A stretch of DNA of 64,000 bases from an uncultured Gemmatimonadota bacterium (lineage in GTDB: Bacteria; GCA-2686955), in the NCBI GenBank assembly GCA_964490075.1, contig CAZBBK010000001.1, positions 186,001 through 250,000 of the forward strand, in the 5' to 3' direction. Below, piece by piece: positions 9,910 through 42,864 of this stretch. A program made the position numbers and the translations under genes. Below the pieces are notes generated by a model, which did no database searches, was not told where the DNA came from, and saw only the letters and a list, made by a program, of their open reading frames with translations. The first letter of the stretch is position 1, and every line of letters starts with the position of its first letter.

Positions 9910-11034
9910 TCATGGGTGCGGCTCAAACCCACCTCTCCCTTCAGCGATGCTCAACAGGTCCGGGAAGGCCAGAATGGCAGGTCTCCGCCCCCTCGCGGGC
10001 CGGATCTCCGTCAAGATCCCCCCCTCTCGAAGAACGCCCAGGAAGCGTCGTGCGGTGGCCTCCGGGATCCCCGCAAATTGAATGAACCACGAACTGGAGA
10101 AGACCGGTCGCTCGAAGATCCAGTCGAGCGCCCTGATTGCATATTGGGAACGGGTCATCTCCGGCGCCCGGCTCTTCAACTCTTGATAGAGCACCAGGAT
10201 ACGCCGAGCCTTGGCCAGGTTGTCTTCGGATTGGACTCGGACCGCCTCCAGGAAAAATGCGCACCAACGGGTCCAGTCACCGTCACGGGAAACTGCCAGA
10301 AGGTGTTCATAGTAGGCATCCCGCCTGGCCTCGAAGTAGCCACTGATGTAGAAGACCGGTCTGCCGATCAAGCCTCGCTGCCAAAGAAAGAGCGGCACGA
10401 ACATGCGCCCGAGGCGGCCATTGCCGTCCAGGAAGGGATGGAGCGCCTCGAATTCGGCATGTAGCAGGCCGAGCTGAACCAGTCGATCCGGCGCGTCGCT
10501 GTGGATGAAACGCTCCCAGATACCCATCGCATCCTGGAGCTTCGCGGCGTCGATGGGAACAAAACGGGCATCTTCTTGGCTGCACCCAGGAGGCCCGATC
10601 CAGTTCGGAACCCGCCGATACTCACCGGGTGATTTCTCGGTGCCTCGCACACCGGAACACAGGACGCGGTGGGCCTCCCGAACGACGCGCTGGGAGAGGG
10701 GCAACTCCCCTAACAGGTCTTCGGCCCTGCGCGTCGCAGCCCGGTAGTTGAGAATCTCCTGAACGTCGTCCCGCCTTGCGGGTGTCGCTGCCTCGCCACC
10801 AGCCTCGACCTCGAAGACCTCCTCGATCGTGGCTTGGGTTCCCTCGATTCGCGAGGAAAGGACCGCCTCCTGGGTCCCCAGCGGGGCGAGGAGGACCCCG
10901 GGATTGGGAATGGCCTCGAGCATGCCGTCATAGCGTGCGAGTGCGGCGGTTGCCGGCCCCAGCTGAGGGATCAGCCCTTCCCACTCGAGGTCGTCCGGGG
11001 GGAAGCGCCCTTCGTGGTAGCGCACGGGTGTCAA
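9910..11034 (-). CDS. Fic/DOC family protein with C-terminal HTH
   Basis: Canonical HPFLDGNGRLGR, EAVLSSRIEGT, PGEYRRVPNWIG. TTG start at 11034 preceded by a GGGGGAGG RBS. Confidence 0.93.
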   Translation of the reverse strand: MTPVRYHEGRFPPDDLEWEGLIPQLGPATAALARYDGMLEAIPNPGVLLAPLGTQEAVLSSRIEGTQATIEEVFEVEAGGEAATPARRDDVQEILNYRAATRRAEDLLGELPLSQRVVREAHRVLCSGVRGTEKSPGEYRRVPNWIGPPGCSQEDARFVPIDAAKLQDAMGIWERFIHSDAPDRLVQLGLLHAEFEALHPFLDGNGRLGRMFVPLFLWQRGLIGRPVFYISGYFEARRDAYYEHLLAVSRDGDWTRWCAFFLEAVRVQSEDNLAKARRILVLYQELKSRAPEMTRSQYAIRALDWIFERPVFSSSWFIQFAGIPEATARRFLGVLREGGILTEIRPARGRRPAILAFPDLLSIAEGRGGFEPHP

Positions 11035-11237
11035 TGGACAGCCTCCCCCTCGAATATCAGCCGGTCGACGTCCTCGGCAGCCGGCACGGACACCCGCCAG
11101 TTCGACTCCTTGACCTTGCCGTGCTCGTCTTCGGCGGCGTCGATCTTGCGCAACTCCCTCTCCAGCGGCGCCTTCACCTGCGGCGGCAGGTCCCGCTCCA
11201 GGAATCCTGTCACTTCGGCGCTCTTGGCTTGCATCAC
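11031..11237 (-). pseudogene. Short ORF, possible remnant of a type III R-M Mod methyltransferase N-terminus
   Basis: MQAKSAEVTGFLERDLPPQVKA resembles, from memory, the N-terminal segment of Mod proteins; no MTase motifs; coupled to the Fic gene. Confidence 0.35.
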
Positions 11238-11815
11238 GGCCCGCCCCGCCCCCTCCCCCGCCCCGCCCGGCGCGCCGCGCGCAGCTCGTCGGGGTCCACC
11301 ACGCCGTTGGTGTCGGCATCGAGCTGGGTGAAGCGGCGCAGGGCTCGGGGGGCGTCCTCGCCGTCGAAGCCCTGGTCGAACTCCCGCCGGGTCAGGTGTC
11401 CGTCGCCGTCGGCGTCGTAGCGCCCCAGATGCAAGGCCGGACGCAGCCCGCCGCGCTGCAGGCGGCGCTCGGCGCGGGCTCCGGGGCGGCGCTGGGCAGC
11501 CCCGCGGCCTTCGCCCTCGCCGCTCTCCAGCTCCTCGGCGTTCAGGCTGCCATCGGCGTCGAAGTCCAGGATTCGAAACCGGACCGCGCTGAACTCGGGG
11601 CCGCCCTGGGTCCCGCGCGCGGCGAACTCCGCTTCGCTGATCCGGCCGTCCTGATCCTGGTCGAGCGTGGCCATGCGCTGCTCCAGGCGGCGCTGCCGAT
11701 CGGCACGGCCGTCGTCGGCGCAGGAGCTCGCCAGGATCCCCAGGGCGAGCGAGACCAGGGCGATTTTGGGCAGCCGCCGGCGGCCGCGGCGTCGTGAGCT
11801 CGGCGTTTCGCGCAT
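11234..11815 (-). CDS. EF-hand calcium-binding lipoprotein
   Basis: Lipoprotein-type signal ending ILASSC; four EF loops DQDQDGRISEAE, DFDADGSLNAEE, DADGDGHLTRRE, DADTNGVVDPDE. Confidence 0.85.
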   Translation of the reverse strand: MRETPSSRRRGRRRLPKIALVSLALGILASSCADDGRADRQRRLEQRMATLDQDQDGRISEAEFAARGTQGGPEFSAVRFRILDFDADGSLNAEELESGEGEGRGAAQRRPGARAERRLQRGGLRPALHLGRYDADGDGHLTRREFDQGFDGEDAPRALRRFTQLDADTNGVVDPDELRAARRAGRGRGRGGP

Positions 11816-11866: not shown

Positions 11867-13486
11867 ATGAGTCGTTTCGCCACCTTGACCCTGGGACTTC
11901 TGGCCGGGCTGGTGGCGCTGGAGATCGGGCTGCGCATCGTCGGCCTGGTCCTCGTGGAGCTGGAGCAGCGCCGCAACAGCGGGCTCGGCGGCGGCGAGGG
12001 GGAGCCGGTGACCGTCCTCTGTCTGGGCGAGTCGAGCACCGCCCTGGGGGGCGACGACGCCTACCCGCGCCAGCTCGAGGAGCTGCTCAACGAGCACGGG
12101 CCGCCCGGGCGGCGCTTTCGGGTGGTGAACGGCGGTCGTCCCGGGATCGACTCCTCGGTCATCATCCGCGACCTCGGCGAGAACCTGGAGCGCTGGCAGC
12201 CCGACATCGTCACCGTGATGATGGGGATCAACGACGGCGTGCTCAGCTTCGTCGACCTGAACCAGTTCCGGGACCGGCCGTGGCCGGGCCGGCTGCTTCC
12301 GCACCTGAAGATCTACCGCTTCGCGCGCTACCTGGCCCTGGCGCTGGGCGCCGAGGACCAACACAGACGCCAGGAGCGGCGCCTGGAGGAGCGCGAGGAG
12401 CACCTGCGCCGGGCGATCGCCGAGCGCGGCGATCCGCTCGACTCGATCGTTCTGGCGATGCTCTACCGCCGCCAGGCGCGCTCGGCCGACGCGGAGCAGG
12501 TGCTGCGCGGGCTGCTGGATCGTGCCCCGAGCGCCCGCGGATGCGTCGACCTGGCCCACCTACTGCACGACCTGGGGCGCTTCGAGGAAGAAGAGGCGCT
12601 CTATCGAGACGCCATCGCCCGCTGGCCCGACTACCACCCTGCCTACCGCTGGCTGATCCGGCTGCTCGGCCACCTCGAGCGCGACGCCGAGATCGAGGGC
12701 CTGCTGCGGGCGCTGGTGGCCGCGGCGCCGGACGCCGAGTCGTACATCGAACTGGCCAAGCACTACCGCGGGTTGGGCCGCGGCGCCGAGGCCGAGGCGA
12801 TGTATCGCGAAGCGATGAAGGTCGAGAAAAGCCCCTACGCCGCCTGCGACCTGGCCGCGATGCTGCGCGAGATGGGCCGCCTGGGAGAGGCGGAGAGACT
12901 GCTGCGCAAGGCCGAGCGCATCGAGCCGGGGAACGCCTGGACCGCGCTCGAGCTGGCCAGGGTTTGCGTCGCGAGCGAGCGCTTCGAAGAGGCGGAGCAG
13001 CTCCTGCTCTCCATCCTCGATGCTAGCGAGCCGCGCTACCGCCCGGCCCGGCACTCCTGGGACGTTCGCCCCCGGGATCGCGCCAGCGCGGCGCTCGAGC
13101 TGGCCGACCTCCAGCACCGGCGAGGCGACCCCCAAAGCGCCCGCGCCGTGCTCGAGCGGATCGCGCCCAATCCAATGACCCACCACAACTACCAGGAGCT
13201 GGTGTCGAAGGTCCTGACGAAGGTCGGGCGCCTAGTCGCCATTCAGTATCCGGTGCGCTCGGTCGCGCTGCTCGAGGCGATGATCCCGGAGCGCGCGGGA
13301 GTGGTGCTGGTCGACAACCAGCGGTGCTTCGAGGACGCGATCGCTCGCGACGGCTACAATGCGCTTTTCCTCGACCATTTCGCTTCGGACTTCGGCCACA
13401 CCAAGCGCCGGGGGCATGCGCTGATCGCACGCAACACGGCCCGCGCCATTCTCGGCGAGTTCTACGGTGTGGAAGCGCTTCCCTAG
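11867..13486 (+). CDS. SGNH/GDSL-like protein with inserted TPR repeats
   Basis: TM anchor (LEIGLR), block I VLCLGESST, VVNGGRPG, MMGIND, a TPR-like helical run, C-terminal DFGH. Confidence 0.82.
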   Translation: MSRFATLTLGLLAGLVALEIGLRIVGLVLVELEQRRNSGLGGGEGEPVTVLCLGESSTALGGDDAYPRQLEELLNEHGPPGRRFRVVNGGRPGIDSSVIIRDLGENLERWQPDIVTVMMGINDGVLSFVDLNQFRDRPWPGRLLPHLKIYRFARYLALALGAEDQHRRQERRLEEREEHLRRAIAERGDPLDSIVLAMLYRRQARSADAEQVLRGLLDRAPSARGCVDLAHLLHDLGRFEEEEALYRDAIARWPDYHPAYRWLIRLLGHLERDAEIEGLLRALVAAAPDAESYIELAKHYRGLGRGAEAEAMYREAMKVEKSPYAACDLAAMLREMGRLGEAERLLRKAERIEPGNAWTALELARVCVASERFEEAEQLLLSILDASEPRYRPARHSWDVRPRDRASAALELADLQHRRGDPQSARAVLERIAPNPMTHHNYQELVSKVLTKVGRLVAIQYPVRSVALLEAMIPERAGVVLVDNQRCFEDAIARDGYNALFLDHFASDFGHTKRRGHALIARNTARAILGEFYGVEALP

Positions 13487-14644: not shown

Positions 14645-14880
14645 ACGAGCTCGAGGCCCAAGAAGAGATCGACTTGACGGGGGTTCCCTGCCCGCAGAAC
14701 GCCGCCCGAGCGCTGCTGCGCCTGGAGACCATGGCATGCGGTGAGCTCCTGAGAATCGTCATCGACGACGGCGAGCCGATCGAGCAGGTGCCGAGTTCGG
14801 TGCTCGAAGAAGGCCACACCATTCGCAGCAAGGCGCAGCTAGAGGACGGGCGCTGGGTGCTCTTTATCGAGGCGGATTGA
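14641..14880 (+). CDS. TusA/SirA-family sulfur carrier
   Basis: 79 aa from ATG 14641 (ATGA overlap with iscS): IDLTGVPCPQN...GELLRIVIDDGEPIEQVP...GH. Confidence 0.88.
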   Translation: MNELEAQEEIDLTGVPCPQNAARALLRLETMACGELLRIVIDDGEPIEQVPSSVLEEGHTIRSKAQLEDGRWVLFIEAD

Positions 14881-16540
14881 TCTCGTAGAGCTCCGAAATC
14901 GTGTTGGCGACATGCCGCGCGAGCACGCCCGCGCCCTGCTCGGTGTAGTGAGAAAAGCTGTAGGGAAAGCGCGGCTCGAAGAAGTAGTCGTCGGGGGACG
15001 CCGCGAAGAGCTGCTTGTTGTCGATGAAGAGCACATCGTCCGCTGGTGGCGCGTAACGGTGCAGCAGCTCCAAGCTGAAGGAGGGATACTGCATCACGAT
15101 CAGTTGAATGCCCTCGCGGCGGGTCAGCTCGTAGAGCCGCCGGTAGCTCTCGGCCAGACTCGGGATCTGGCCCACGGCGTGCTCGAGCAACTCGCCCACC
15201 CGATCGGCGTCGCCGGCCAGTCGGAACAGCTTCGCCAGCTCGAAATACTCGGCCAGGCGCCCGGTGGTCTTGAGCAGCTCGCGGCGCACCCGCTCCTCTT
15301 TGTCGAGCTCCCCGGTTTGGCGGTAGACGGTGCTCAAGAGCCACATATTGACATGCTTGCGTGGCGTGGCCTGGATTGCGCGCGTGAGATGGAATTCGGC
15401 CCGGTTCCAACTGTTGGTGGCGATGAAGACTCGGCCCAGAGCGGCATGTTTCAACATCTTCAGGGACGGAAAGATCTCGTTGTAGCGAGTCGCCCAGACC
15501 GATGAATCGACCTTGCGCAAGAGCGTCAACGCGCCGCCACAGTCCCCCAGCTCGCGATTGACGTCGGCCAGCGCCAGCAGGAGATAGTTTTTCACCAGCT
15601 CCGACTCTCGGAAGGAGCGCGCTTCCCCCAGCGCCTCTTCGATGATCGCTTCGGCCTCCAGCAGGCGCCCGTTCTCGGCCAGGAGCTCGGCCAGCACCAC
15701 GGAGTACATTCCTTCGTCGGGATGCAGCAGGATGGCCGCCTCGAGAATCTGCTCCGCCTCCGGGCTCTCGCCGCAGGTGGCGAGCACGCGCGCCAGCACG
15801 TTGTAGCCGACATCGTGCTCGGCGATCATCTGCTGGAGCAGCGCTCGAGCGCGCTCCAGCCGCCCGGTGTCCCAGTAGTAGAGCGCCAGCCGCATCCCCG
15901 GCAGGACCGCCTCGGCCAGCTCGGGCGCGTCGATCAGCCGGGTCTCCCGCACCCAGGTCTTTAGCTGCTGGGTGATGCTCTTGTTGGCGCTCGCGGACAG
16001 CTCCTCCAGGGAGGCGACGTCGCCGGCGTTTTCGTTGTAACGCAGGAGCACCCCTTCGCGGAGCCAGCTCACCAGCTGCACGGTGCGCAGCGAGGCCAGC
16101 CAGGAGGGCAGCTCGGCGGTGGCGGGGGTGCCGTCCTTGGCGGTGTCCTTGATGCCCATCATGGCGATGACCACGTGGGGGCGGTAGTCGGGCAGCGTGC
16201 TCTCGAGCAGGTCGAGGGCGCTCCCGGTCTTGCCGGCCATCATCCCCAGGTTGAGCACCCGAAAGTCGATCGATGACTGGCTGGCATCGAGGATCCGCTG
16301 GAGCTGAGTGGGGTAGGAGGTGCGCGGCACGAGCATCCTGCCGGACTCGTCGCCGGCCACCGCGGTGGTCGACTCGCCGATGCAGGCGATGCGGATCTCG
16401 CGCTCACCGCCCTCGATCAGGGCACGGTTGCGGCGCGCCTGCAGGTGGGCGAAGCCTCCGTAGGCGAGGGCCAGGCCGATTTCCAGCAGACCCAGCGTGA
16501 GCGCGGCCCCGATGGTCACGGAGATCAGCTTGCGTCTCAT
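14864..16540 (-). CDS. SGNH/GDSL-like protein with inserted TPR repeats (paralog of 11867..13486)
   Basis: TM anchor, IACIGESTT, VLNLG, MMGIKD, TPR run, IVMQYP, C-terminal SHYTEQG. Confidence 0.78.
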   Translation of the reverse strand: MRRKLISVTIGAALTLGLLEIGLALAYGGFAHLQARRNRALIEGGEREIRIACIGESTTAVAGDESGRMLVPRTSYPTQLQRILDASQSSIDFRVLNLGMMAGKTGSALDLLESTLPDYRPHVVIAMMGIKDTAKDGTPATAELPSWLASLRTVQLVSWLREGVLLRYNENAGDVASLEELSASANKSITQQLKTWVRETRLIDAPELAEAVLPGMRLALYYWDTGRLERARALLQQMIAEHDVGYNVLARVLATCGESPEAEQILEAAILLHPDEGMYSVVLAELLAENGRLLEAEAIIEEALGEARSFRESELVKNYLLLALADVNRELGDCGGALTLLRKVDSSVWATRYNEIFPSLKMLKHAALGRVFIATNSWNRAEFHLTRAIQATPRKHVNMWLLSTVYRQTGELDKEERVRRELLKTTGRLAEYFELAKLFRLAGDADRVGELLEHAVGQIPSLAESYRRLYELTRREGIQLIVMQYPSFSLELLHRYAPPADDVLFIDNKQLFAASPDDYFFEPRFPYSFSHYTEQGAGVLARHVANTISELYEINPPR

Positions 16541-16694
16541 GGGGCCGGTTCACGGTGCATGGGTGGGGACGGGGGGGAGAACACAGGGGGCATGCGCCAA
16601 TTGTACTATCGGCGAAGTGCTGGTTCGGCGCGTGAAGCGATCGCCCGCGGTGCCGGAGCCGCCCTTGCGGCGCTCGAAACAATATCATTCCGCC

Positions 16695-19130
16695 ATGTTG
16701 CCCTTGCCGAGATCGCACACGATCATCGCCTGCCTGGTTCTCTGCGCCTCGTGCTCCGATTCGCCGCGGCGACGCGACCCGGTCGATGATCTCGAGCGCG
16801 GCCGGGAATCGGCGGCAAAGCTGATCCCCGCGGAGCTCGAGGTGACGCCCGAGACGGCGCCCCCGGGCGCGCGGCTGAACCTGCGGGCTCGGATTCCGCG
16901 GCCGCCGCCGGGGTGGACGGAGCTGGAGGCCGAAGTCCGCGTGGACGGCGCCGAGACCGGGGACTCGATCGCGCTGCGCGCCACCGGAGAGGCACTGGCG
17001 GGCACCCTTGGCGTCGTCGCGCCGCAAGATCCGGGGGACCACCGCTTCACCCTTCGCGGCCGCGCGGGCGCGCATCGCATCGTGGCACACGCCCTGGTCC
17101 AGGTCAGCGCCGCTCCGTCCTGCGCCGAAGGAGAGGTCCGCGAGGCGGGACGCTGCGTGCCCCGGATCGACGGGCATCACCTGCGTGTGAATCGCGCCAT
17201 CCATGTCAACCAGCGACGCTCGCCTCCGGGGGGCGGCGGAGCGGCGATGACCCATCCTCGCAACGCCACATCGGTCGACGGGGTGGTCGTCGCCTGCATG
17301 ACCGACGCGATCGGACTGATCCCGGTGGCCGAGATGCCCGCGATCGAAGGCCCGCCGGACGGGGCCTCCGAGAGATTGCGCGCCAACCTCGTAGAGGTCT
17401 TCATGAACGAGAGCGGGATCCGCGCCGCCGAGCGCCTGCTGGTGCTCCCGGATCGCGGCATCGTCCTTTCGGCGTCGCGCGGCGCCGACAACTCGGGCCG
17501 GGGCGGCCTCGCGACCTGGCGGCTGCCGCCCCTCGATGCAGCGACCCTCGAGCCGCCGGAGCACCTCTCGTCGGTGGTCGACCGGCGCGGCTTCGGCGCC
17601 ACGTTGCGGGCCGGAGAGCGGATCTACGCCCTTCACAACCCGAACGCGATCGCCCGGGTGCGGATCTCGGACCAGGGCCGGATCGAGGTGAGCGACGAGC
17701 TGACCCTGCCCGCCCTGCGCAACGCGACGGCCATCGCCCACGACGGCATCCACCTCCTGGTGGCGGGCGGGATCGAACCCGGGGCCGAGAGCGAAGGCGC
17801 CGGCACGATCGAAGTGCTCGACGCGCGCGGCACCGGTCCACCGCTCCCACTCGGCTCCGCGCCCACCACCGGAACCCCGCGCGGAATCGCGGTGCTCGAC
17901 GACGCCATGGTCGCCGTCGCCAACGGCGCGCTCGGGATCGACCTCATCGACCTGAGCGACCCGGCGGCGCCGCGCCTGGTCACGACGGTGCCGACGCCAG
18001 CCTCGGCCATGGGGCTCTCGTTCGAGGAGGGCTACCTGCTGGTGGCCGACTGGGACAATATCCGGCTCTACGACGCATCGCGGCGCGGGCAGCTGCGGCT
18101 TCTCGACGCCTTGGACGGATTCCATTCCGCCTTTCGGGCGGCAGGCGGCGGGCTCCACCGCAACGGTCTCACGGCCGCCAACTTCGTGCGCCTGGAGGGG
18201 GGGCGATTCCTGGCGGGGGAGCTCGACGTGCTGCTGGTCGGCGAGATCCGTCGCGGCGCGGGAGCGCCTCGACTGGTGATCCACGATCGCAACCACCTGC
18301 GGCGGCGCGGCGCCGGCGAGGATCAGCCCTTCACCATCCGGGTGTCGAACGGTGGCCGCCACCAGCTCGACCTGATGCAGCCGGGCGATCCGGATCCGGA
18401 GGCGGGCGGGCACTGGTGCCTCGCTCCGGGCCGATCGGCGAAGCTCGAGCTTCGCGCCTCGGGGGTAGCGCTCGAACGGCGCCGCGGCGACACGGCGGTC
18501 GTGATCCGCTCCAACGATCCCGAGCACCGGCGCACGCGCATCGGCCTGCTCCCCGCGAGCGACTATTCTGTGGGGGACCCGGCCCCGAGCTTCCGGCTGC
18601 CGATGGTCAACATCTGCCCCGACGGCAGCTGCCCGGAGCGCGTGGGCTGCTTCGATCTGCAAGAGGAGCTGGCGCGCGGACGGCCGATTCTGCTGGCCGC
18701 CTTCGCCTCCTGGTGACCGATCTGCGGTCTGGAGGTTCCAGACCTGATGAGCGCCGTGAGGCGCGAGTTCACGCCCGAAAAGGTGCGCGCGCTCGCGATC
18801 AACTGGCGCCAGGATCGACGCATCGTGCGCAAGTTCATCGCCGATACCGGCCTCGAGGTGCCGGTGCTGCTCGATCGCGAGCGCGGCGGCGACCCCTCCT
18901 GTTTCGCGCTGCCCTCCGGCTCGGCGGAGACGCTCACGGAGCATTTTCGCGATCGAGTGCGATCGGTGGGAACCGACGCCCCCTTCCCCTTGCAGATCAT
19001 CATCGACCCCGAGGGCCGACTGGCCTATCTGAGCCGCGTCCACTCTTCCGAGAGGGCGATCACGGTCCTCAGAGGACTGGTGGAACAGCAGCGCGAAGAA
19101 CCCGGACAGATCGCGGCGGAGACTCGATGA
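16695..19130 (+). CDS. Putative selenoprotein 1: lipoprotein with Ig-like domain, LVIVD beta-propeller, Ig-like domain and TlpA/redoxin domain (UxxC)
   Basis: Lipobox-like LCASC; LVIVD-type repeats. Track ORFs 16497..18716 and 18747..19130 are in frame across TGA 18714-18716, giving AFASW-U-PICGLEVPDL...LAINW...VPVLLD...PFPLQIIID; SECIS-like hairpin follows. Confidence 0.88.
18726..18744 (+). promoter_or_regulatory. Bacterial SECIS-like hairpin
   Basis: GGTCTGGA-GGT-TCCAGACC, a perfect 8-bp stem with a G-containing loop, 9 nt after the UGA; identical in the paralog. Confidence 0.82.
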
Positions 19131-20878
19131 GCCACGCCGCAGCGTGCCCCGTCCCATCCGGATCGAGCGGACGATCGATCGTGATCGTCGCGCCGCGCTT
19201 CACTTCCCTGCGTCGCTTCGGCGTCGACTCCCTGGAAGTCCCGCTGCGCCTGATGACCCGGCAGGGCGCACCGGCTTCGCTGGTCCATCTCGACGCGATC
19301 ATCCATTCATCGACCCTGAGAGCGGCGCCGCGCGGCGGTGGTCTGAACCGGGTGAATCCGATGGCCGGTTACTACCTGGAGAGCTTCTTCAAGCAGCGCG
19401 GCTACCGGGCAATCGCGCTCTTCGACATGAATGACGCCGCGGCGCTCAGGCGGGCCATGCGGACCGATCCGCTGGCCCTGCTCTTCTCGACGACCTTCGT
19501 CACCGAGCCCGCGGTGCTGGTCGCCTGTCTGCGCAAGCTGCGCGCTGCCGCCGGCCCCACGCCGATCCTGGTCGGCGGCCAGTACATCGACATGCAGGCC
19601 TGGTTCCTGCGAACCGACCGCAGCAATCGTTGGAAACGAGACCTGGCCGAGCTCGGCGTCGCATCGAGCGAATATCTTCTCTTCCATGAGCGCAGCGATC
19701 CACTGCTGCGAAAGTGCATCTTCATCGCCTCGGCCCAGGGCGAGCACACGGCCGCAAGGGTCCTCCAAAGGCTGGAGAAAGGCCGCGGAGCCAGTGAAGA
19801 TCTCGCCGATATTCCCAACCTGGTGCTCCGCGATTCGGAGCGCGGCTGGCATCATTCAAGTGTTTGGCGCGAGCCCGTGGATCTGGACCAGGATTACACG
19901 CGGTGGGATTTGATCGACGAGATGCCCTCCGCGGTTCCGATTCGCAGCGTGCTCGGGTGCGCCGAGAGGTGTAAATTCTGTGGCTTTCGAATCCTCCATC
20001 CTCGGGTGGTGGGACGCGGCGCCGCGTCGATCATCGACGAAGTGAAGCTGGCCATGGCGCGCGGCGTGGCCTTCTTCAACTTCGTCGACGACAATGTTTT
20101 CGTGACTCCCGAGCGCGCCCGCTGCCTCTGTGAGAGCCTCGTCCGGGCGGAGCTCGACATGGTCTGGGGCGCCTTCTTCAACGCCGACCGGGTCAGCGAA
20201 GTGAACGCCGAGCAAATCGTCGAGTCGGGGTTCCGCTACGGTCTGACCGGCCTGGAGAGCGGAGATCCGAGGCAGCTGGAGCGACTCGGCAAGAGGGGCG
20301 ATCCCGGCGCGCGAGTGCGCGGAGTGGAGCTACTCACCAGCCTTGGGGCAATCATCGACTGCACCTTCTTGGTCGGATTCCCCGGCGAGAGCGAGGCGAC
20401 GCTCGATGCCACCGCCGCGTTGATCAACTCCCTGCCCACCGGCGGCGCGGGCCATGCCTGCTTCGAGCTCTTCCCATTCACGCTGCTGTCCGGCACGGAG
20501 GCGGACACCCCGAGATTTCGGCGCGAGCACGATCTCAGAGGGGGCGGCTCGGACTGGTCTCACGCCACGATGGGCAGCTCCGAAGTGGTCGATCGCTACG
20601 CGCCGCACACCTTCCGACAGGTCGACCACATCCCCTACTATCATGGAGATATCGACGCGCCTTCCTGGTGGGACCCGAAGCGGAGAGACGAGGCCTTCGC
20701 CCGGCGGACCGCGATCACCCACGCCTTCATGGACAGCCGGGACGACGCCTGGATACAGAGACTCTTCGACGACCTTCATCGGCTCATCGCCGATCCCGGG
20801 CGGCGCGGCGACCCACCGCGTTGGACCGAGATTCTGGCCGATCGGGAGGGGCAATCGACCGGGATGATCCGACCTTGA
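19127..20878 (+). CDS. B12-binding (class B) radical SAM protein, PhpK-like features
   Basis: Start ATG 19127 (ATGA overlap). Cobalamin-type N-domain (LLFSTTF...ILVGG, QGE, IPNL), CAERCKFC, FVDDN, GLESG, LVGFPGE, WSHATM. Confidence 0.85.
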   Translation: MSHAAACPVPSGSSGRSIVIVAPRFTSLRRFGVDSLEVPLRLMTRQGAPASLVHLDAIIHSSTLRAAPRGGGLNRVNPMAGYYLESFFKQRGYRAIALFDMNDAAALRRAMRTDPLALLFSTTFVTEPAVLVACLRKLRAAAGPTPILVGGQYIDMQAWFLRTDRSNRWKRDLAELGVASSEYLLFHERSDPLLRKCIFIASAQGEHTAARVLQRLEKGRGASEDLADIPNLVLRDSERGWHHSSVWREPVDLDQDYTRWDLIDEMPSAVPIRSVLGCAERCKFCGFRILHPRVVGRGAASIIDEVKLAMARGVAFFNFVDDNVFVTPERARCLCESLVRAELDMVWGAFFNADRVSEVNAEQIVESGFRYGLTGLESGDPRQLERLGKRGDPGARVRGVELLTSLGAIIDCTFLVGFPGESEATLDATAALINSLPTGGAGHACFELFPFTLLSGTEADTPRFRREHDLRGGGSDWSHATMGSSEVVDRYAPHTFRQVDHIPYYHGDIDAPSWWDPKRRDEAFARRTAITHAFMDSRDDAWIQRLFDDLHRLIADPGRRGDPPRWTEILADREGQSTGMIRP

Positions 20879-23800
20879 GCACGCCCGCAGCGGAACCGCC
20901 ACCGAGCTCTTCCTGGCGCTCGATGCCTTCGCGAATCCCCTCGATCGACGCGCGCTTCGCCACCGCGCTGCTGGTGCTCGTGATCATCGCAGCCTTCGTC
21001 GCGGCCGAGCTGGCGCTCTCCACCGAGATGATCGCCTCGACCCTCTTCCTCGACGGACGGGACGGGGCGGGCTACCTGGAACGAGCCAGCGGACCCTGGC
21101 TGCAGACCGACGGCTACCACGGGCCGGCCTACTCGTGGGCGATTCGCGTCGTCTCCGGTCTCGGGATGGACCCGTGCCGCGCGGCGCGCTGGGCGAGTGG
21201 GGGCTTCGCGGGGCTGTTCCTGGCCGCGTCGTGGCGGCTCCTCGCGGGTCTGGGCCGGCGCCGCGAGGCGCTGCTGGCGTGTGCGCTCCTGGCCACCCAT
21301 CCGCTGGTGATCCGCGCCGGGCTGGGCACCCGCTCGGACATGATGGGGGCCGCCCTTTTCGTGACAGCGCTGGCGATCTACCTGGAGCATCGCATGCCGC
21401 ATCGCCGGCGCGCGCTGCTCGCGGGGGCGGTGCTCGGCCTCGCCTACATGACCCGCTTCGTCTATGTCCTGGGGCTCGCGATCCCGGTCGTGGATCTGTG
21501 CATCGCCGCGCGCGACCGGAGCGCGCTGCGGCGGGCGCTCGCGAAGACCTTGTCCTTCGGCGCCGGATTCCTGGGGGCGGCCGCGCCCTGGCTCTGGCAC
21601 GTTGCGACGCAGCCCGGCGTCCGCTTACTGGGCTTCAACCACATCAACGTGGCCTTCAAGCTCTTCCACGATGCGAACGACTGGGGCAGCTTCCCGAACC
21701 GGCACGACTACGGTGGGATCGTCGATGTGTTGCGCCGCGATCCCGCGCACTTCTTCGAATCGTGGGGGCGCTCGCTGCTCCGCCTGCCGTACGACATGGC
21801 GCAGCTCTTCCCCGATCTGGAGCTGCTCTGCGCCGCGGGCGCCCTGGTCTGGTTGTTCAAGGGGGAGCGCCGACACCTGGCCTTGGTGGTGCCTTGTGCC
21901 TGCTACGCCGCGGCGATCTCCATGGTGCACTACAGCGGACACCACCTGGTGACCCTGGCACCGCTGGCCGCGGGGTTGGTCGCCGCGGGATTGGCGTGGC
22001 TGCCGAATCGCCTCAGGCGTTCCGGGCGGCGCACAACGCTGCCGATCTGGCCGCTGGCGGCGGGCGCCGTGGTCTGGATCTGCGCGGCGCGGGGAGTCGA
22101 GCGGTATCGTGGGTACGAGGATCGCTGGGCGAGCCTCGCGGCGGCGGCGGACGCGCTGCGGGAGCATGCGCCCAAGGAGGCTCGGGTCTGGGGGCTGGAT
22201 CCGGCGGTCGCGGAGCTATCGGGAACCCGGCCGGTCGACATGTGGCGGAGCCTGACGGAGAACCGCGGCGTCGAGCTCGGGGAGCTGCTGCGCCGGGAAG
22301 ACGTCGACTACGTGGTGCTCGACGCCAACACCGCCGCCGCCTTCCCCCGCACCGCACCGCTCTACCGCGATCCCGAGAGCGCGCGCGGCACCTCGCTGTT
22401 CGAACCGATCCACGTCTCGGGAGACGCGCCGACCTGCGGCATCGTGGTGTTCTCGGTGACCGGCGGCGTCGACGCACCGGCGGCCCCCAACATCGTCATC
22501 CTCGACATCGATATCTTGCGCGCCGACGCGCTGCCCTGCTTCGGCAATTCTCGCGACACCGCTCCGAATCTATGTCGCTTCGGCGCGGGCGCGGTGCTCT
22601 TCGAGCGCAACTTCTCCCCCTCGTTCTGGACCCTGCCGGCGCTGGTCTCCACCTTGACCGCTCAGTACCCCTCGCGCCACGGCCTCTTCGTCACACCGAT
22701 GGGCGCGCGGCTGCGGGGACTGAAGGCCGGTCGCCTGGCGGAAAACACCTGGACGCTGCCGAGCATCCTCGCCGCCAACGGCTACTCGACCCACTACGTG
22801 GGACAGGACAACACGCGCCTGCTCAACGAGGAAAACGGGATGCTGGGCGAGTTCGAGCAGAGCACGGAATCGAGCGGCATCGAGTCGTGGCTGGCGGCTC
22901 TGCGCCGGGCCGAGGAACACGGCTCCCCCTTCTTCGTCCATTTCTACTCACGCGGGGTGCGCCTTCCCTACTCCGACGACAACCACGGGCGCCCCCTCTC
23001 CGACGACCTGCGCCGCTGGTCCGATGCCCAGCTCGTGCCACCCCCCGGCTTCCCCGCCACGCCCCGGGCGCTGGAGCTGGCCAGCGCGCGGCCCGTGGCC
23101 GCCCGACCCGAGCACTACTTTCCGCCCTGGGCGATGGAGCGACGCCCCGAGCTCTTCACCAGCGACCAGGGCGGCGACCCACAGGAGATCTTCGCCTACC
23201 TGTGCTCGATCCGCGAGGAGCTGGAACCGCCCTACCGCCACCGCGCCCAGGATGCCCTCTGGTCTCCTTGGCGCGATGCCGTGACCGGGGGCGGCGAGGC
23301 GGCGCGAGCCTACGCCCGCCTGCAGTACGACACCAAGGTGCGTCATCTCGATCGACTCCTGGGGCCGCTACTCGACCATCTGTCGGGGCCGCGGGCCGAC
23401 GATACCATCGTCGTCGTCAGCTCGACCCACGGCGAGTTCATCGGCGAGCACGACTTGGTCGGCCATGGGCGCAACCTCTTTCAAGAGGTGCTTCATACAC
23501 CCTTGATGGTGCGCATTTCCGGGTTCAAGCCTACGCGCATCGCCGAGATCACGCAGCACGTCGACATCCTTCCCACGCTGCTCGATGCGCTGGGAATCCG
23601 CATTCCCGAGCGCGCCCAGGGGCTCTCATTGCTGCCCTGGATGCGCCGCGGACAGGGCGACCGGGAGCGCTTCGCGATCAGCGAGATGGAGCTACACTCG
23701 GCCTGCATCCAAAGCCGTAACTGGAAGCTGATCGCGCGGAGGGCAGAGCCGCGCTCGATCCCGCGACAGCTTTTCCACCTGGCAAAAGATCCACGAGAAG

Positions 23801-23964
23801 AGCACGATCTACTCGGCCGTGAGCGCGCTCTCGGCGATCAGCTCGGTCGAATTCTGGATGCGACGCTCGGCGATCCAGCCCGCTGGGCGCTGGAGCCCGG
23901 CGAAGGCCGCGCTCTGCTCGACGACGCCGCGCGCGAGCAGGTGCAGCGGCGCGGCTACTTCTGA
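20875..23964 (+). CDS. Fusion of a GT-C/PMT-like multi-TM glycosyltransferase domain and a sulfatase-like domain
   Basis: TTG 20875 (TTGA overlap) or ATG ~20923. Multi-TM N-half (DG.GY, HGPAY, RSD, GLAYMTR); C-half PNIVILDIDILRAD, WTLPAL, STHGE, VDILPT, LFHLAKDPRE. Confidence 0.8.
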   Translation: MSTPAAEPPPSSSWRSMPSRIPSIDARFATALLVLVIIAAFVAAELALSTEMIASTLFLDGRDGAGYLERASGPWLQTDGYHGPAYSWAIRVVSGLGMDPCRAARWASGGFAGLFLAASWRLLAGLGRRREALLACALLATHPLVIRAGLGTRSDMMGAALFVTALAIYLEHRMPHRRRALLAGAVLGLAYMTRFVYVLGLAIPVVDLCIAARDRSALRRALAKTLSFGAGFLGAAAPWLWHVATQPGVRLLGFNHINVAFKLFHDANDWGSFPNRHDYGGIVDVLRRDPAHFFESWGRSLLRLPYDMAQLFPDLELLCAAGALVWLFKGERRHLALVVPCACYAAAISMVHYSGHHLVTLAPLAAGLVAAGLAWLPNRLRRSGRRTTLPIWPLAAGAVVWICAARGVERYRGYEDRWASLAAAADALREHAPKEARVWGLDPAVAELSGTRPVDMWRSLTENRGVELGELLRREDVDYVVLDANTAAAFPRTAPLYRDPESARGTSLFEPIHVSGDAPTCGIVVFSVTGGVDAPAAPNIVILDIDILRADALPCFGNSRDTAPNLCRFGAGAVLFERNFSPSFWTLPALVSTLTAQYPSRHGLFVTPMGARLRGLKAGRLAENTWTLPSILAANGYSTHYVGQDNTRLLNEENGMLGEFEQSTESSGIESWLAALRRAEEHGSPFFVHFYSRGVRLPYSDDNHGRPLSDDLRRWSDAQLVPPPGFPATPRALELASARPVAARPEHYFPPWAMERRPELFTSDQGGDPQEIFAYLCSIREELEPPYRHRAQDALWSPWRDAVTGGGEAARAYARLQYDTKVRHLDRLLGPLLDHLSGPRADDTIVVVSSTHGEFIGEHDLVGHGRNLFQEVLHTPLMVRISGFKPTRIAEITQHVDILPTLLDALGIRIPERAQGLSLLPWMRRGQGDRERFAISEMELHSACIQSRNWKLIARRAEPRSIPRQLFHLAKDPREEHDLLGRERALGDQLGRILDATLGDPARWALEPGEGRALLDDAAREQVQRRGYF

Positions 23965-26271: not shown

Positions 26272-28740
26272 ATGGCTCCACCCTCTCCGCCGGGGCGATC
26301 CCGCCGCTGGTGGTCGATCGCCGCTCTTCCGGTACTGGTCTTGGCCGTGGCCTGGGGACTGCGATCCAGGTCGCCGCGCCCGCCTCTGGGAGACACACCG
26401 ATTCCGCGATCGGGCATGCGATCGCCGCAGCGCAATGAGCTCGACGCCGAGCTGCTCCCGGCGCGGCTCGAGGCGACGCCCGCGCAGGTCCGACCGAACG
26501 CCCCCCTGACGCTGACCCTGCGCCTCCGCCACCCACCCGAGGACTGGTCCACGCCGACCTTCTCGATCTCCCTGAACGGCGCACCGACCGAGCATCGGAT
26601 CACGCTCGATCGGCTGCAGGGTTCCATGGAAGGCGCTCTCGAGCTCGCCGCTCCCTCCCAGAAGGGAGACCATCTTTTCAGCGTCCACGGGCGTGAGGGC
26701 GAGCGACGCATCGCGACCCACGCGCTGGTCCATGTCAGCGCCGGTGATGCCTGCGCGCCGGGGGAAATGCGCGAAGCGGGCTCTTGCGTGCCGATCGCGG
26801 AGGGCCACCACATCCGCTTCGAGGGCGGCGTGAACGTGAACAACCGCGGTCCGGATCGTTACGCCGGCGGACAGATGACCCACCCGCGGGCCGCGGCGCG
26901 GATCGGCGATGTGATCGTTGCCTGCATGACCGACGCGATCGGCCTGATCCCGGCCGACGAGCTTCCGAAGATCGGCGAGCCGGAGACCGGCGCGGCCGAT
27001 CGGCTGCGCTCGCACCTGGTCGAGGTACTGCTGGAGAAGAGCGGCATCGTGGCCTGCGAGAATTTTCTGGTCCTTGCCGACCGGGGGATCGTCATCACCT
27101 CGTCGCGCGGCGCGGACCGGCAGACCGCGGGCGGGCTGGCGAGCTGGCGGCTGCCGCCCCTCGATCGCCGTCCCCTCGCCCCACCACGCCACATCTCCAC
27201 CCTCACCAGCTCGGGAGGGTTCGAGGGAGTGGCTCGCCACGGCGATTGGATCTACGCCGTGCGCAAGCCGAACGCGATCGCCGCGCTGCGGCTTTCGGAC
27301 CAGGGCCGGCTCGGCCTCGAGCACGAGGTGGAGGTGCCGGGGATGCGCGGCGGTTGGGCGATCGCCGCCCGAGCGAACCGGCTTTTCGTGACCGACGCGC
27401 AGGGCGGGACCGATTCGAAAGGCGCGGCGGGTCGGCTCCATGTGCTGGCCCTGACTCCTTCCGGCCGGCCGCGTCTGCTCGGCTCGGCGCCGACCTCGGG
27501 AACGCCCCGGGATGTCGAGCTGCTCGGCTCCGGCGTGGTCGCGGTCGCCAACGGAGCTCTCGGGATCGATCTCTTCGACGTGTCGGAAGCGGGTGCGCCG
27601 ATCCCGATCGCGCGGGTGGAGACCCCGGGATCGACCATGGAGCTCTCGTTCGACGCCGGCTATCTGCTGGTCGCCGACTGGGACAGCATCCGGCTCTACG
27701 ACGCCTCGGAGCACGGTCGCCTGAGGCTTCTCGATGCCGCCGACGCCTTTCACCCTTCGGTCCACATCACCGGCGGCGGACTGGTGAGAACCGGCCTCTT
27801 CGCCGCCAACTTCGTCGATCTGCGCGACGGGCATTTCCTGGCCACCGAGTTCAACGTCCTGCTCAGCGGCCGGATCCAGACCGGTGCGGGCGCGGCGCGG
27901 CTGATCGTTCACGATCGAGGGGTCGCCCTACAGGCAGGCGGCGCGGAAAACCGGCCGATCGCGCTCCGGGTATCGAACGGCGGCCGCCGTCAGCTCGATC
28001 TGAGTCAGCGCGGCCAGGGGCTGACGCGCGGTGGAGGCCCGTGGTCGGTGCCTCCTGGGGCGACGGCGAAGCTGGAGATCGAGCTGGAGCGCGAGCGGGC
28101 CGCCGCGAGGAGCCGCGAATCGGTCATCGTGCTGCACTCCAACGACCCGCTGAAACGGCGGGTCCGAATTCCCGTCACCCCTCCGGCGGGATACCGCCTG
28201 GGGGATCTGCTGCCCTCGTTCCGGCTGCCGATGATCAACCTCTGTCCGGACGGCTCCTGTCCGGAGCGCACCGGCTGCTTCGACCTGGCGGAAGAGATCG
28301 CCAAGGGCCGCCCGATCCTGCTGGCGGCCTTCGCGTCGTGGTGACCGATTTGCGGTCTGGAGGTTCCAGACCTGATGAGCGCCCTTCGCGATGAGTTCGG
28401 ACCCGACCAGGTGGGCGCCGTCGCGATCAACTGGAGGCAGCCGCGCGGGATCGTCGAGAAGTTCGTCACCGACACCGGATTGCGGACGCCGATCCTGCTC
28501 GATCTCGGCCCCGGCCTGGATCCCCAGTGCTTCGCTCTTCCCCCCGGCCCCGAGCCCACGGTAATCGAGCACTTCCGCAACCGGGTGGTCTCCGAGGGCT
28601 TCAATGTGCCCTTCCCCTTGCAGATCATCGTCGATGCCGAGGGTCGCCTGGCCTTCGCCAGCCGCCGCCACGACGCCGAAGAGGCGTTGGAGGTGCTGAG
28701 GAGGCTGATCCGGGGGGATGGAGACAGGGAGCGGGGATGA
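26272..28740 (+). CDS. Putative selenoprotein 2: membrane-anchored Ig / LVIVD beta-propeller / Ig / TlpA-redoxin (UxxC)
   Basis: Full-length paralog of 16695..19130. Track ORFs 26074..28344 and 28375..28740 are in frame across TGA 28342-28344, giving AFASW-U-PICGLEVPDL. Confidence 0.88.
28354..28372 (+). promoter_or_regulatory. Bacterial SECIS-like hairpin
   Basis: GGTCTGGA-GGT-TCCAGACC, identical in sequence and spacing to 18726-18744. Confidence 0.82.
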
Positions 28741-42042: not shown

Positions 42043-42576
42043 ATGTCCCTGAGCTCCAACTCCAAAGCCCGAAGCTGGTCGCGAGTCGCGATCGCGCTGT
42101 GGATCCCGACCGTCGCGGTGCTGATCTGGATGGCCCGCGATCGACCGCTCCCCGACCCCCAGGCGCAGGCCGGCGACACCCGCGAGGGGGTGGGGCTGCT
42201 GCCGGACGAGACCGAGTTCGTGCGGCGCAGGATGCGCGAGAACCTGGTGGCCTTGCACCGCATCCTCGACGCCGCCGCCAAGGACGATATGCGCACCGTG
42301 GCGCTGGTCGCCACCCACGCCGGCAATCTGCCGATGCTCGGCCAGCAGTATCCCAGCCTGCGAGGGATCATCCCGCCCCCCTGGACCCAGCTCGGCCGCA
42401 TGGTCCACACCGAGCTGGGCAACCTGGCGCGGGCCGCGCGCCGGGGCATGCCGGTCGAGGAGCTGCCGGAGCACCTGGCACGGGTGACCTCGGGCTGCGT
42501 CTCCTGCCACAACACCTACCGCATCGCCCCCGAGGATCCCGAGCGCCGCGCCCGCGCCGCGCGGAGACGACGTTGA
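42043..42576 (+). CDS. Cytochrome c'/c556-like protein (paralog of 9015..9557)
   Basis: TM anchor, MRENLVALHRIL, C-terminal CVSCH..YR. Confidence 0.75.
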   Translation: MSLSSNSKARSWSRVAIALWIPTVAVLIWMARDRPLPDPQAQAGDTREGVGLLPDETEFVRRRMRENLVALHRILDAAAKDDMRTVALVATHAGNLPMLGQQYPSLRGIIPPPWTQLGRMVHTELGNLARAARRGMPVEELPEHLARVTSGCVSCHNTYRIAPEDPERRARAARRRR

Positions 42577-42864
42577 GGAGTCGATCCCCGGCCGGCTGGC
42601 GTTGACCACCTCGAAGCACACCCCCTCGGGCCCGTGCTCGTTGAGCAGCCCCTCGAGCTGGCGCGGGTAGGCGCTCTCCCCGCCGACCGCCGTGCTCGAT
42701 TCCCCCAGGCAGAGAACCCGCACCGCCCGACCCTCGCCCGCGTCCGGCAGCACGTTGCGCCGCGCCTCGCGCGCCAGGAAGAGCCCGCCCGCGACGCGCA
42801 GCGCGATTTCGAGCGCCACCAGGCCGGCCAGGCAGCCCAGGCACGCGCTGATGAACCGGCTCAT
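42574..42864 (-). pseudogene. Truncated N-terminal copy of the SGNH-TPR gene
   Basis: MSRF...LEIALR...VLCLGESSTAVGG..AYPRQLE.LLNEHGP...RPGIDSS matches 11867.., then similarity stops at the cytochrome gene's stop codon. Confidence 0.8.

Follow-up and report, generated by a model that had tools for sequence, protein, structure and literature searches.

Thioredoxin-fold selenoproteins in which selenocysteine (Sec, U) stands first in a U-x-x-C motif have long been known. In passages of PMC13188914 and PMC1794560, and in Table 2 of PMC2398784, proteins of this kind with the Pfam domains PF00578/PF08534 and a UxxC motif are named 'Prx-like thiol:disulfide oxidoreductase' or 'Prx-like 1/3' (Prx, peroxiredoxin). 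A passage of PMC1794560 states that in most selenoprotein families the Cys forms far outnumber the Sec forms. The bacterial Sec insertion sequence (bSECIS), as summarized in a passage of the review PMC13188914, has by consensus a loop of 3-9 nt, a stem of 4-16 bp, a G in the first two loop positions, a distance of 16-37 nt from the UGA to the loop and a minimum free energy <= -7.5 kcal/mol. Here we describe a gene with a redoxin domain of this long-known group, located at 16695-19130 on the plus strand of a 64,000-nucleotide stretch of DNA from an uncultured Gemmatimonadota bacterium. The whole stretch, referred to below as the window, corresponds to positions 186001-250000 of contig C1 in genome G000 (5.7 Mb in 136 contigs, 95% complete).

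The gene had been called as two, and the mis-split is genuine: the two called genes are one, encoding a putative cell-envelope lipoprotein of 811 residues. Judged from the sequence, we give the single gene and its decoding through Sec, together with the proposed domain architecture, a probability of about 0.85; the decoding of UGA674 as Sec within one polypeptide, taken by itself, is very likely. On the sequence evidence we consider it shown that this is one gene with a Sec codon and a SECIS, that its domains stand in the order given below and that Sec is retained throughout the family. An earlier reading made from the letters of the window (the sequence-only reading) had proposed a hidden exported selenoprotein at this place, and overall it was supported by the analysis; all the refuting conditions that it had named were examined, and all of them turned out in its favour.

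Reading frame on both sides of the TGA

On the plus strand the frame from 16695 to 19130 was interrupted only once, by an in-frame TGA at 18714-18716. The open reading frame (ORF) at 16497/16695..18716 terminates there as ...LLAAFASW-TGA, and beyond this codon the same frame reads PICGLEVPDLMSAV..., with P-I-C-G-L-E-V-P-D-L-M-S-A-V... as the residues directly past the TGA, for 137 further codons until a stop TGA at 19128-19130. Readthrough from the ATG at 16695 gives a product of 811 amino acids (811 codons plus the TGA stop) whose Sec-spanning stretch is ...ILLAAFASW-U-PICGLEVPDLMSAVR. The continuation of the frame from AFASW-TGA into a redoxin fold, as noticed in the sequence-only reading, was borne out by Pfam domains which span the TGA: across residues 626-730 AhpC-TSA (PF00578) scored 37.7 bits against a cut-off of 26 and Redoxin (PF08534) 35.3 bits against 26.6. 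A phmmer search of the PDB returned 24 sequence matches with E <= 0.01, the best of which was Bacillus subtilis ResA (3c71_A, E 5.2e-7), and in this alignment the column of the TGA codon is the first Cys of the ResA W-C-x-x-C motif, exactly where that reading had placed it.

Homologues obtained by a six-frame search of 61 genomes were 53-62% identical (52-61% when aligned end to end), aligned over their full length and contained a single TGA each, in the same column. These relatives comprised a second copy in the window (copy B) and four genes from two genomes of the same family, two in either genome; the search also gave more distant LVIVD-redoxin genes in the window's own genome and in unrelated genomes. 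When 18 homologous sites were cut out from five genomes (the window's own, three relatives from its family and two unrelated genomes), TGA-CCN-NNN-TGY was found in frame (W/x-U-P-x-C) at all 18, and the recurrence of TGA and hairpin at the same column of 18/18 sites is more than chance. Taken over all homologues this column, which the sequence-only reading had singled out for a check, contains TGA at the 18 sites, Cys in ResA, in other TlpA-like proteins of the PDB and in six TlpA-like paralogues of the genome, and Ser in one distant member (P0013). Copies A and B were 52% identical to each other; in two related genomes the orthologues of copy A were 59-61% and those of copy B 66-68% identical to their respective copies. 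On this comparison of sequences A and B are old paralogues, their duplication predating the split of the three genomes, with the TGA retained in both.

The substitutions downstream of the TGA were those of a coding sequence. Among the seven close genes of the 18 the differences past the TGA fell mostly on third positions, with one pair showing 9/6/41 differences at positions 1/2/3. Over the ten codons that separate the TGA from the next ATG, change was limited to synonymous substitutions (CCG/CCT, TGC/TGT, GAC/GAT, CTG/CTC, CCA/CCG) and exchanges of Ile and Val. A protein-based scan, which returned two loci, identified a gene of a 'Proteobacteria bacterium' metagenome-assembled genome (MAG), 34-36% identical, with the same TGA and an identical hairpin sequence. 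A DNA pattern consisting of TGA plus hairpin was then matched at 13 loci, seven of them not found before. These loci come from nine other MAG assemblies, whose labels are Gemmatimonadetes/ota, Deltaproteobacteria, Myxococcota, Proteobacteria and Rickettsiales. Since the pattern itself selects for the hairpin, these loci are uninformative with respect to hairpin conservation. In all 13 the frame stays open for 121-137 codons past the TGA, and in five of them Ala replaces Met after the hairpin, no ATG being present there.

Public protein collections contain the pieces that would be expected from splitting such genes, as the sequence-only reading had anticipated for standard annotation. One entry (P0002) is the 673-aa N-terminal piece of this very protein and another (P0036) a 118-aa C-terminal piece of a homologue. 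A word-indexed protein search returned five proteins of 664-729 aa with 80-83% query coverage, one of which is labelled 'hypothetical protein [Gemmatimonadetes bacterium]'. An exhaustive search returned 7430 matches at E <= 1e-3, of which 41 reached E <= 1e-30, the weaker ones being mostly long LVIVD-repeat proteins aligned to residues 366-475. Twenty-eight of the best matches were inspected as protein sequences. Of these, 23 stop at the W673 column (...F-x-S/T-W), two more (P0023, P0046) end at the same column with a different last residue, and P0032 is cut elsewhere; P0036 and P0013 make up the remainder. Cys at the Sec column was found in 0/28 inspected proteins of the ~800-aa lipoprotein subfamily, which on these sequences looks like an exception to the rule that Cys forms outnumber Sec forms. 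The annotation is corrected here for two genes of the window and for 13 loci, the public collections carrying truncated 'hypothetical proteins' in their place.

Other frames over the same DNA were considered and set aside. An antisense ORF at 16404-19157 on the minus strand encodes 917 aa and is longer than the annotated sense ORF, and a further ORF lies in the +2 frame at copy A; neither has a Pfam match, and both were taken as shadow frames of a gene rich in G+C (68%). A scan for promoters and terminators revealed nothing exceeding shuffled expectation.

Hairpin and selenocysteine machinery

A perfect inverted repeat, GGTCTGGA-GGT-TCCAGACC, occupies 18726-18744 and begins 9 nt past the TGA, as the sequence-only reading had described it. 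Folded alone it reached -11.9 kcal/mol (z -2.87; 1/200 shuffles as stable), and in a context of 71 nt -35.2 kcal/mol (z -3.38), a value equalled by 0/200 shuffles. Compared value by value with the consensus bSECIS given above, the hairpin lies within every limit, with its GGU loop, 8-bp stem, 17 nt from UGA to loop and -11.9 kcal/mol. Covariation was assessed for a six-pair helix over all 18 rows, including two short stand-alone genes in which the hairpin lies five bases further on and which count against the helix. Even so, 91.7% of the helix cells were paired, compared to 22-52% when the partner was slid by 1-3 columns; compensatory changes on both sides were present in 6/6 helix pairs, and the covariation score was reached by 0/500 shuffles.

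Synonymous sites within the hairpin are frozen. Only 6 of 119 invariant residues with four-fold-or-more degenerate codons are codon-identical in all seven full-length genes, half of these six (G678, L679 and V681) sit in the hairpin, and the longest codon-identical run of the whole gene is G678-V681. On the 3' arm the changes CCA to CCG and GAC to GAT convert Watson-Crick pairs to G-U pairs. Its fixed spacing, covariation and synonymous freezing recommend the element as a clean natural system in which to test how a bacterial SECIS is recognized. Metagenome runs X2-X4 also contain contigs from other organisms that match 18714-18746 only (33 nt, 1-3 differences) and have a different sequence upstream, and the TGA-hairpin module is thus common to other genes in those waters.

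The genome contains a complete set of Sec genes, the presence of which the sequence-only reading had proposed to look for. selA (430 bits) and selD (318 bits) scored above their curated cut-offs, selB reached 345.6 bits against a cut-off of 242, and one tRNA-Sec with anticodon TCA was detected both by ARAGORN and by Rfam RF01852 (75.2 bits against 47). The selD gene (C65:32509-33429, L010) is itself a selenoprotein gene with an in-frame TGA (...LVPAGG-U-ARK) and a hairpin ~20 nt past it. TGA is not reassigned genome-wide, for it is the usual stop, terminating 3354 of 5208 open frames >= 400 codons. Eighteen redoxin domains were found when the six-frame translation of the genome was searched with a hidden Markov model of this domain, and seven of them have an internal TGA. 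In six of the seven the TGA lies at W-U-x-x-C and the seventh (C68:13509) reads T-U-G-G-C; six other redoxin domains have W-C-x-x-C with an ordinary Cys codon. Besides selD, the genome therefore has at least seven Sec-containing TlpA-like genes. Five of these, further to the window's copies, have the TGA at the first active-site position: C38:37293 (W-U-S-S-C), C48:18779 (W-U-P-A-C), C68:13509 (T-U-G-G-C), C1:43199 (W-U-G-S-C) and C77:18859 (W-U-P-V-C). The C68 gene lies ~4 kb from selA. The phylum was represented by only five species genomes in the collection searched, and a selenium-rich lineage within it is of note for marine trace-element biology.

A number of results weigh against this reading of the TGA and its hairpin. 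The hairpin belongs to no Rfam family: a local E-value search gave chance matches only (E >= 3), and the whole window searched against Rfam at the gathering score gave 0 matches. For the 36 nt past the codon, folding energies range from -7.3 to -13.3 kcal/mol in seven Sec genes and from -6.3 to -16.3 kcal/mol in six Cys paralogues; because the Cys paralogues fold equally well in this genome of 68% G+C, hairpin energy was dropped as a means of telling Sec from Cys genes. Four marine metagenome runs contain the stretch, and contigs of three samples (X1 record 1, X3 record 13 and X4 record 16) cross 18714-18716 without a variant; all four runs, however, were produced in a single study, and the assembly may derive from one of them. 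Among the runs listed for this DNA none is of RNA.

Decoding as Sec has to be set beside other explanations of the stop codon. Two real genes, with a stop at the TGA at 18714 and a separate protein of 127 aa starting from the ATG at 18747, is the split that gene callers give, and copy A does have an in-frame ATG ten codons past the TGA. Such a split would, however, take U-P-I-C-G-L-E-V-P-D-L out of a single thioredoxin fold, which would lose its active site and the beginning of helix 1; the ten codons concerned are under protein-level constraint, with synonymous CCG/CCT and TGC/TGT changes and Pro and Cys kept in 18/18, and 5/13 loci have no ATG at that place. We therefore regard two separate genes as exceedingly unlikely. 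A nonsense mutation, a pseudogene or an assembly error, which has nothing in its favour beyond the stop codon itself, is a negligible prospect: the same codon occupies the same column at 18/18 sites, both old paralogues among them, and at 13/13 pattern loci, the substitutions downstream are of the coding type, and the contigs of three samples cross it without a variant, none showing the TGC or TGT on which the sequence-only reading would have fallen. Lastly, readthrough of the UGA might insert a residue other than Sec, or other residues besides it, either by near-cognate insertion of Trp, Cys or Arg or by insertion of Cys through the Sec machinery at low selenium. The Sec pathway is able to insert Cys, and sequence alone leaves the inserted residue indistinguishable. 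Against such a reading stand the complete Sec system, which serves selD and no fewer than six further TlpA-like genes at the same column, the conserved hairpin at the SECIS position and the use of TGA as the genome's main stop, and we judge it very unlikely. Decoding of UGA674 as Sec is accordingly the reading used below.

Domain architecture

The full-length protein was modelled with AlphaFold from an alignment of 32 sequences (mean predicted local distance difference test, pLDDT, 86.1; predicted template modelling score, pTM, 0.88), with low pLDDT confined to residues 1-40 and a few loops. The modelled order is signal/lipobox, Ig-like (immunoglobulin-like) sandwich, seven-bladed propeller, Ig-like sandwich and thioredoxin fold. 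Positions of the features are collected in Table 1.

Table 1. Positions in the window of the selenoprotein gene, its parts and its paralogue, with the basis for each.
Feature	Positions	Strand	Basis
Whole selenoprotein gene, copy A	16695..19130	+	Translation with TGA=U; end-to-end alignment to homologues
Signal peptide with lipobox; Cys20 putative lipidated residue	16695..16754	+	Conserved column, read by eye
N-terminal Ig-like beta-sandwich, residues 42-137	16818..17105	+	AlphaFold 2 model: eight strands, pLDDT ~95
Cys143...Cys154 beta-hairpin	17121..17156	+	Strands 147-150 and 153-156 (model)
Seven-bladed beta-propeller, residues ~161-535, LVIVD-type later blades	17175..18299	+	Model fold and profile searches
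Second Ig-like sandwich, residues 545-619, N-G-G motif	18327..18551	+	All-beta in both models; hhalign
TlpA/ResA-like thioredoxin fold, residues 622-804, W673-U674-P-I-C677	18558..19106	+	Pfam, PDB, model
UGA predicted to be read as selenocysteine, residue 674	18714..18716	+	Column of first Cys of ResA WCxxC; TGA in homologues
Codon of partner Cys677 in U-x-x-C pair	18723..18725	+	TGY in 18/18 sites; TGC/TGT synonymous variation
SECIS hairpin, 8-bp stem, loop GGU	18726..18744	+	Folding, covariation, synonymous freezing, bSECIS model
Paralogue B, same architecture, 822 codons	26272..28740	+	TGA 28342-28344; identical hairpin 28354-28372

The sequence-only reading had pictured a lipoprotein of ~811 aa in which Ig domains and an LVIVD propeller are joined to a Sec redox centre. 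The length of 811 aa, the Ig-like domains, the propeller and the redoxin domain were all recovered in models and fold searches, the LVIVD character of the propeller was recovered by profile-profile comparison with Pfam remaining below its cut-off, and the lipobox proved atypical. At the C20 column 22/25 aligned members have Cys, most boxes being canonical L-x-[GAS]-C as read by eye; against a lipobox consensus of [LVI][ASTVI][GAS]-C, copy A itself has L-C-A-S-C20 with an unusual Cys at -3, a point which counts against its assignment as a lipoprotein. The N-terminal Ig-like sandwich had no Pfam match. In the hairpin which follows it C143 is conserved in 25/26 and C154 in 26/27 sequences, and the two may form a disulfide.

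The propeller was modelled with ~30 strands in residues 161-535. Its best Foldseek matches were of the WD40 type, and by VIA-align it superposed (model range 161-520) on Ski8p (1sq9_A) with Z 31.4 and a root-mean-square deviation (rmsd) of 2.9 over 311 aligned residues, on Leptospira Lp49 (3bws_B) with Z 30.0 and on Escherichia coli YncE with Z 29.2, the overall range being Z 28-31. Pfam LVIVD (PF08309) scored 17.6 bits on copy A, below its cut-off of 20.2. When the family was aligned by hhalign to LVIVD-positive relatives, which score 47-90 bits for LVIVD and also bear Ig matches of the HYDIN/ASH/DUF1573 type, a probability of 100 was obtained (E 1.3e-51, residues 267-798), and the second sandwich aligned with the stretch to which Pfam gives these Ig names in the relatives. 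C201 is conserved in 28/28 sequences; another column of the family is Cys in 23/28 but Ala245 in copy A.

The last 288 residues were also modelled on their own (pLDDT 83.1). The thioredoxin domain matched 2ls5, a putative disulfide isomerase, with Z 17.1, DsbE (3gl3_A) with Z 16.4 and rmsd 2.0, ResA (2f9s_A) with Z 15.7 over 137/138 residues, CcmG with Z 13.4 and TlpA with Z 12.7; the first three superpositions covered 137-149 residues. W-U-P-I-C stands before the modelled helix 680-691. In the proline loop, P763 does not vary over 21 sequences and P765 hardly does, and both align to the ResA motif S-P-L-P. The additional Cys residues to which the sequence-only reading had drawn attention are real and conserved, C641, C646 and C652 being kept in 31/31 and C736 in 8/8 aligned sequences; C677 is kept in 7/8. 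C641, C646, C652 and C736 lie within two insertions which relatives with a C-terminal sorting tail do not have.

Proposed function and relation to known systems

In the mechanism that we propose, the hairpin at 18726-18744, with its stem 9 nt and its loop 17 nt past the UGA, would recruit SelB and Sec-tRNA(Sec) at UGA674, Sec would be inserted and translation would continue for 137 codons. The mature protein would be anchored at the envelope through a lipidated Cys20, with the propeller as the presumed substrate- or partner-binding module, and the Sec674/Cys677 pair would alternate between selenol/thiol and selenenylsulfide. The most likely activity would be that of a thiol-disulfide reductase outside the cytoplasm which is re-reduced via a membrane electron carrier of the DsbD/CcdA type; to a reductase fed by DsbD we give even odds. 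The genome has three DsbD_TM genes, which are possible electron donors. We infer the lipidation, the SelB-dependent insertion, the redox direction, the electron donor and the role of the propeller as a binding platform.

Several findings weigh against this assignment of function. None of the three DsbD_TM genes lies inside the window. One relative, P0013, reads through as W-S-P-F-S, with Ser in place of both redox residues, and not every member of the family can therefore be redox-active; from its sequence P0013 is presumably a redox-dead relative. By fold, peroxiredoxins come nearly equal to the reductases (Bcp1 Z 15.4, AhpE Z 14.7). The radical SAM (S-adenosylmethionine), sulfatase and GDSL-TPR genes which adjoin copy A are not beside its orthologues in the loci compared, with the exception of a sulfatase-type gene at L051 and a GDSL gene at L052.

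The main functional rival is the same selenoprotein acting at the cell surface as a selenol peroxidase or peroxide scavenger (Prx-like), and not as a disulfide reductase. Sec resists over-oxidation, and this counts for a peroxidase, as do the marine metagenome samples in which the stretch was found, AhpC-TSA as the best Pfam family, and fold matches which extend from the two peroxiredoxins just given to glutathione peroxidase (Z 12.2). The active site, however, is a thioredoxin-type W-U-P-x-C at the position of the ResA CxxC, the best matches by sequence and fold are of the ResA, DsbE and TlpA type, and the motif is not T-x-x-U/C, which Table 2 of PMC2398784 gives for Prx selenoproteins. A peroxidase is on this evidence rather unlikely, and a reductase remains our preferred assignment.

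We also put forward, tentatively and with more doubt than confidence, that the clade of ~800-residue lipoproteins represents an envelope enzyme which depends strictly on selenium and has its own job, and not a variant of the cytochrome- or copper-maturation reductases. The suggestion was made because the inspected proteins include no Cys form and because the clade has its own propeller and an active-site cap formed by two insertions with four invariant Cys. Such an enzyme might, for instance, work at the cell surface in oxic sea water as a reductase or peroxidase whose substrate lies in the outer envelope or outside the cell. A 19-nt SECIS is identical in proteins that are 34-36% identical and come from differently labelled phyla, and if the clade does have its own job, this identity would reflect either gene transfer or a tight joint constraint from SelB and the G-L-E-V-P-D-L peptide.

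Directly downstream of copy A, a B12-binding radical SAM gene of 583 aa lies at 19127-20878 (+), its ATG overlapping the TGA stop of the selenoprotein gene (ATGA); its best NCBIfam match, PhpK-family P-methyltransferase, scored 142 bits, far under the cut-off of 600. This gene is followed at 20668-23964 (+) by a frame of 1098 aa in which a PMT_2 (membrane glycosyltransferase-like) region is joined to a sulfatase domain, and a 52%-identical relative of this frame adjoins a partial selenoprotein copy in another genome (L051). Paralogues with GDSL-lipase and TPR domains occur in the window at 11867-13486 (+), 14864-16540 (-), ~42436-42864 and ~50494-51033 (-); GDSL-TPR genes are upstream of copy A, and a GDSL gene is also found downstream of the L052 orthologue. 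No functional link to these neighbours was drawn because they are not conserved between genomes. No cytochrome-maturation genes were found near copy A. A Fic/DOC family gene (Fic_N and Fic) lies at 9910-11319 (-). In an unrelated genome, a region of 6.5 kb (L047, G039:C1:107000-113500) holds four Sec-containing redoxin genes, two of them 770-aa genes with LVIVD, Ig, redoxin and sorting tail which alternate with two stand-alone redoxins of ~170 aa, the hairpins of the latter being five bases further from the TGA.

The fusion of lipoprotein signal, Ig-like domains, propeller and redoxin domain was found in no paper of the literature searched and in no NCBIfam model, none of which reached its cut-off, and the supplementary fusion figure of PMC2398784, which lay outside the search, may show part of it. 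With it a large exported fusion is added to the list of bacterial selenoproteins. Almost every member of this fusion family appears to use Sec, with no Cys among those inspected, which is unusual among thioredoxin-fold families. Human NHLRC2 (PDB 6gc1) likewise joins a thioredoxin-like domain to a beta-propeller, and its thioredoxin-like domain matched that of copy A with Z 14.5 and rmsd 2.1 over 147 aligned residues. In NHLRC2, however, the order of the domains is reversed, Cys is present rather than Sec and the protein is eukaryotic; the likeness is one of architecture only. The NHLRC2 propeller is a six-bladed one of the NHL type. The proteins of NF041054 ('ResA-like WAxxUGC motif-containing protein') and the selenoproteins of the 'UGC-containing TlpA family' are TlpA/ResA-like selenoproteins as well; copy A scored 18.1 bits against the cut-off of 300 for NF041054, its motif is W-U-P-I-C and not WAxxUGC, and it is not a member.

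With the Prx-like selenoproteins, as they are described in the passages cited above, copy A shares a fold of the AhpC-TSA/Redoxin type, Sec as the first residue of UxxC, a SECIS directly downstream and occurrence in marine and delta-proteobacteria-like lineages. Unlike these proteins, by comparison of descriptions, it has a redoxin domain that takes up only the C-terminal 190 residues of 811 and is preceded by a signal, two Ig-like domains and a seven-bladed propeller, and it contains two subfamily-specific insertions with four conserved Cys. Those passages give the Prx-like families many more Cys than Sec forms, whereas no Cys form was seen among 28 relatives here. The extracytoplasmic CxxC reductases ResA, TlpA, CcmG and DsbE, which serve in the maturation of cytochrome c and of copper centres, resemble copy A in fold, extracytoplasmic location and the aligned proline loop; they differ in having Cys where copy A has Sec, in the large N-terminal domains of copy A and in the maturation genes, none of which are near it. 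The NCBIfam equivalogs for ResA, DsbE(CcmG) and StoA were not reached (27.6 versus 170, 22.4 versus 210, 21.6 versus 123 and 21.0 versus 359 bits), and copy A is best described as working like the ResA/DsbE/StoA proteins without being a member of those equivalogs.

Close in build are the LVIVD propeller-Ig-redoxin genes with a C-terminal sorting domain, of which one is in the same genome (G000:C77) and others in G039. These have a plain signal peptide, a strong Pfam LVIVD match and a C-terminus of the FlgD_ig/Por_Secre_tail type, and have neither the N-terminal Ig-like domain and lipobox of copy A nor its Cys hairpin and its two insertions with Cys. From the propeller to the redoxin domain the two types are homologous, and they share the W-U-P-x-C motif and a hairpin at the same distance from the TGA.

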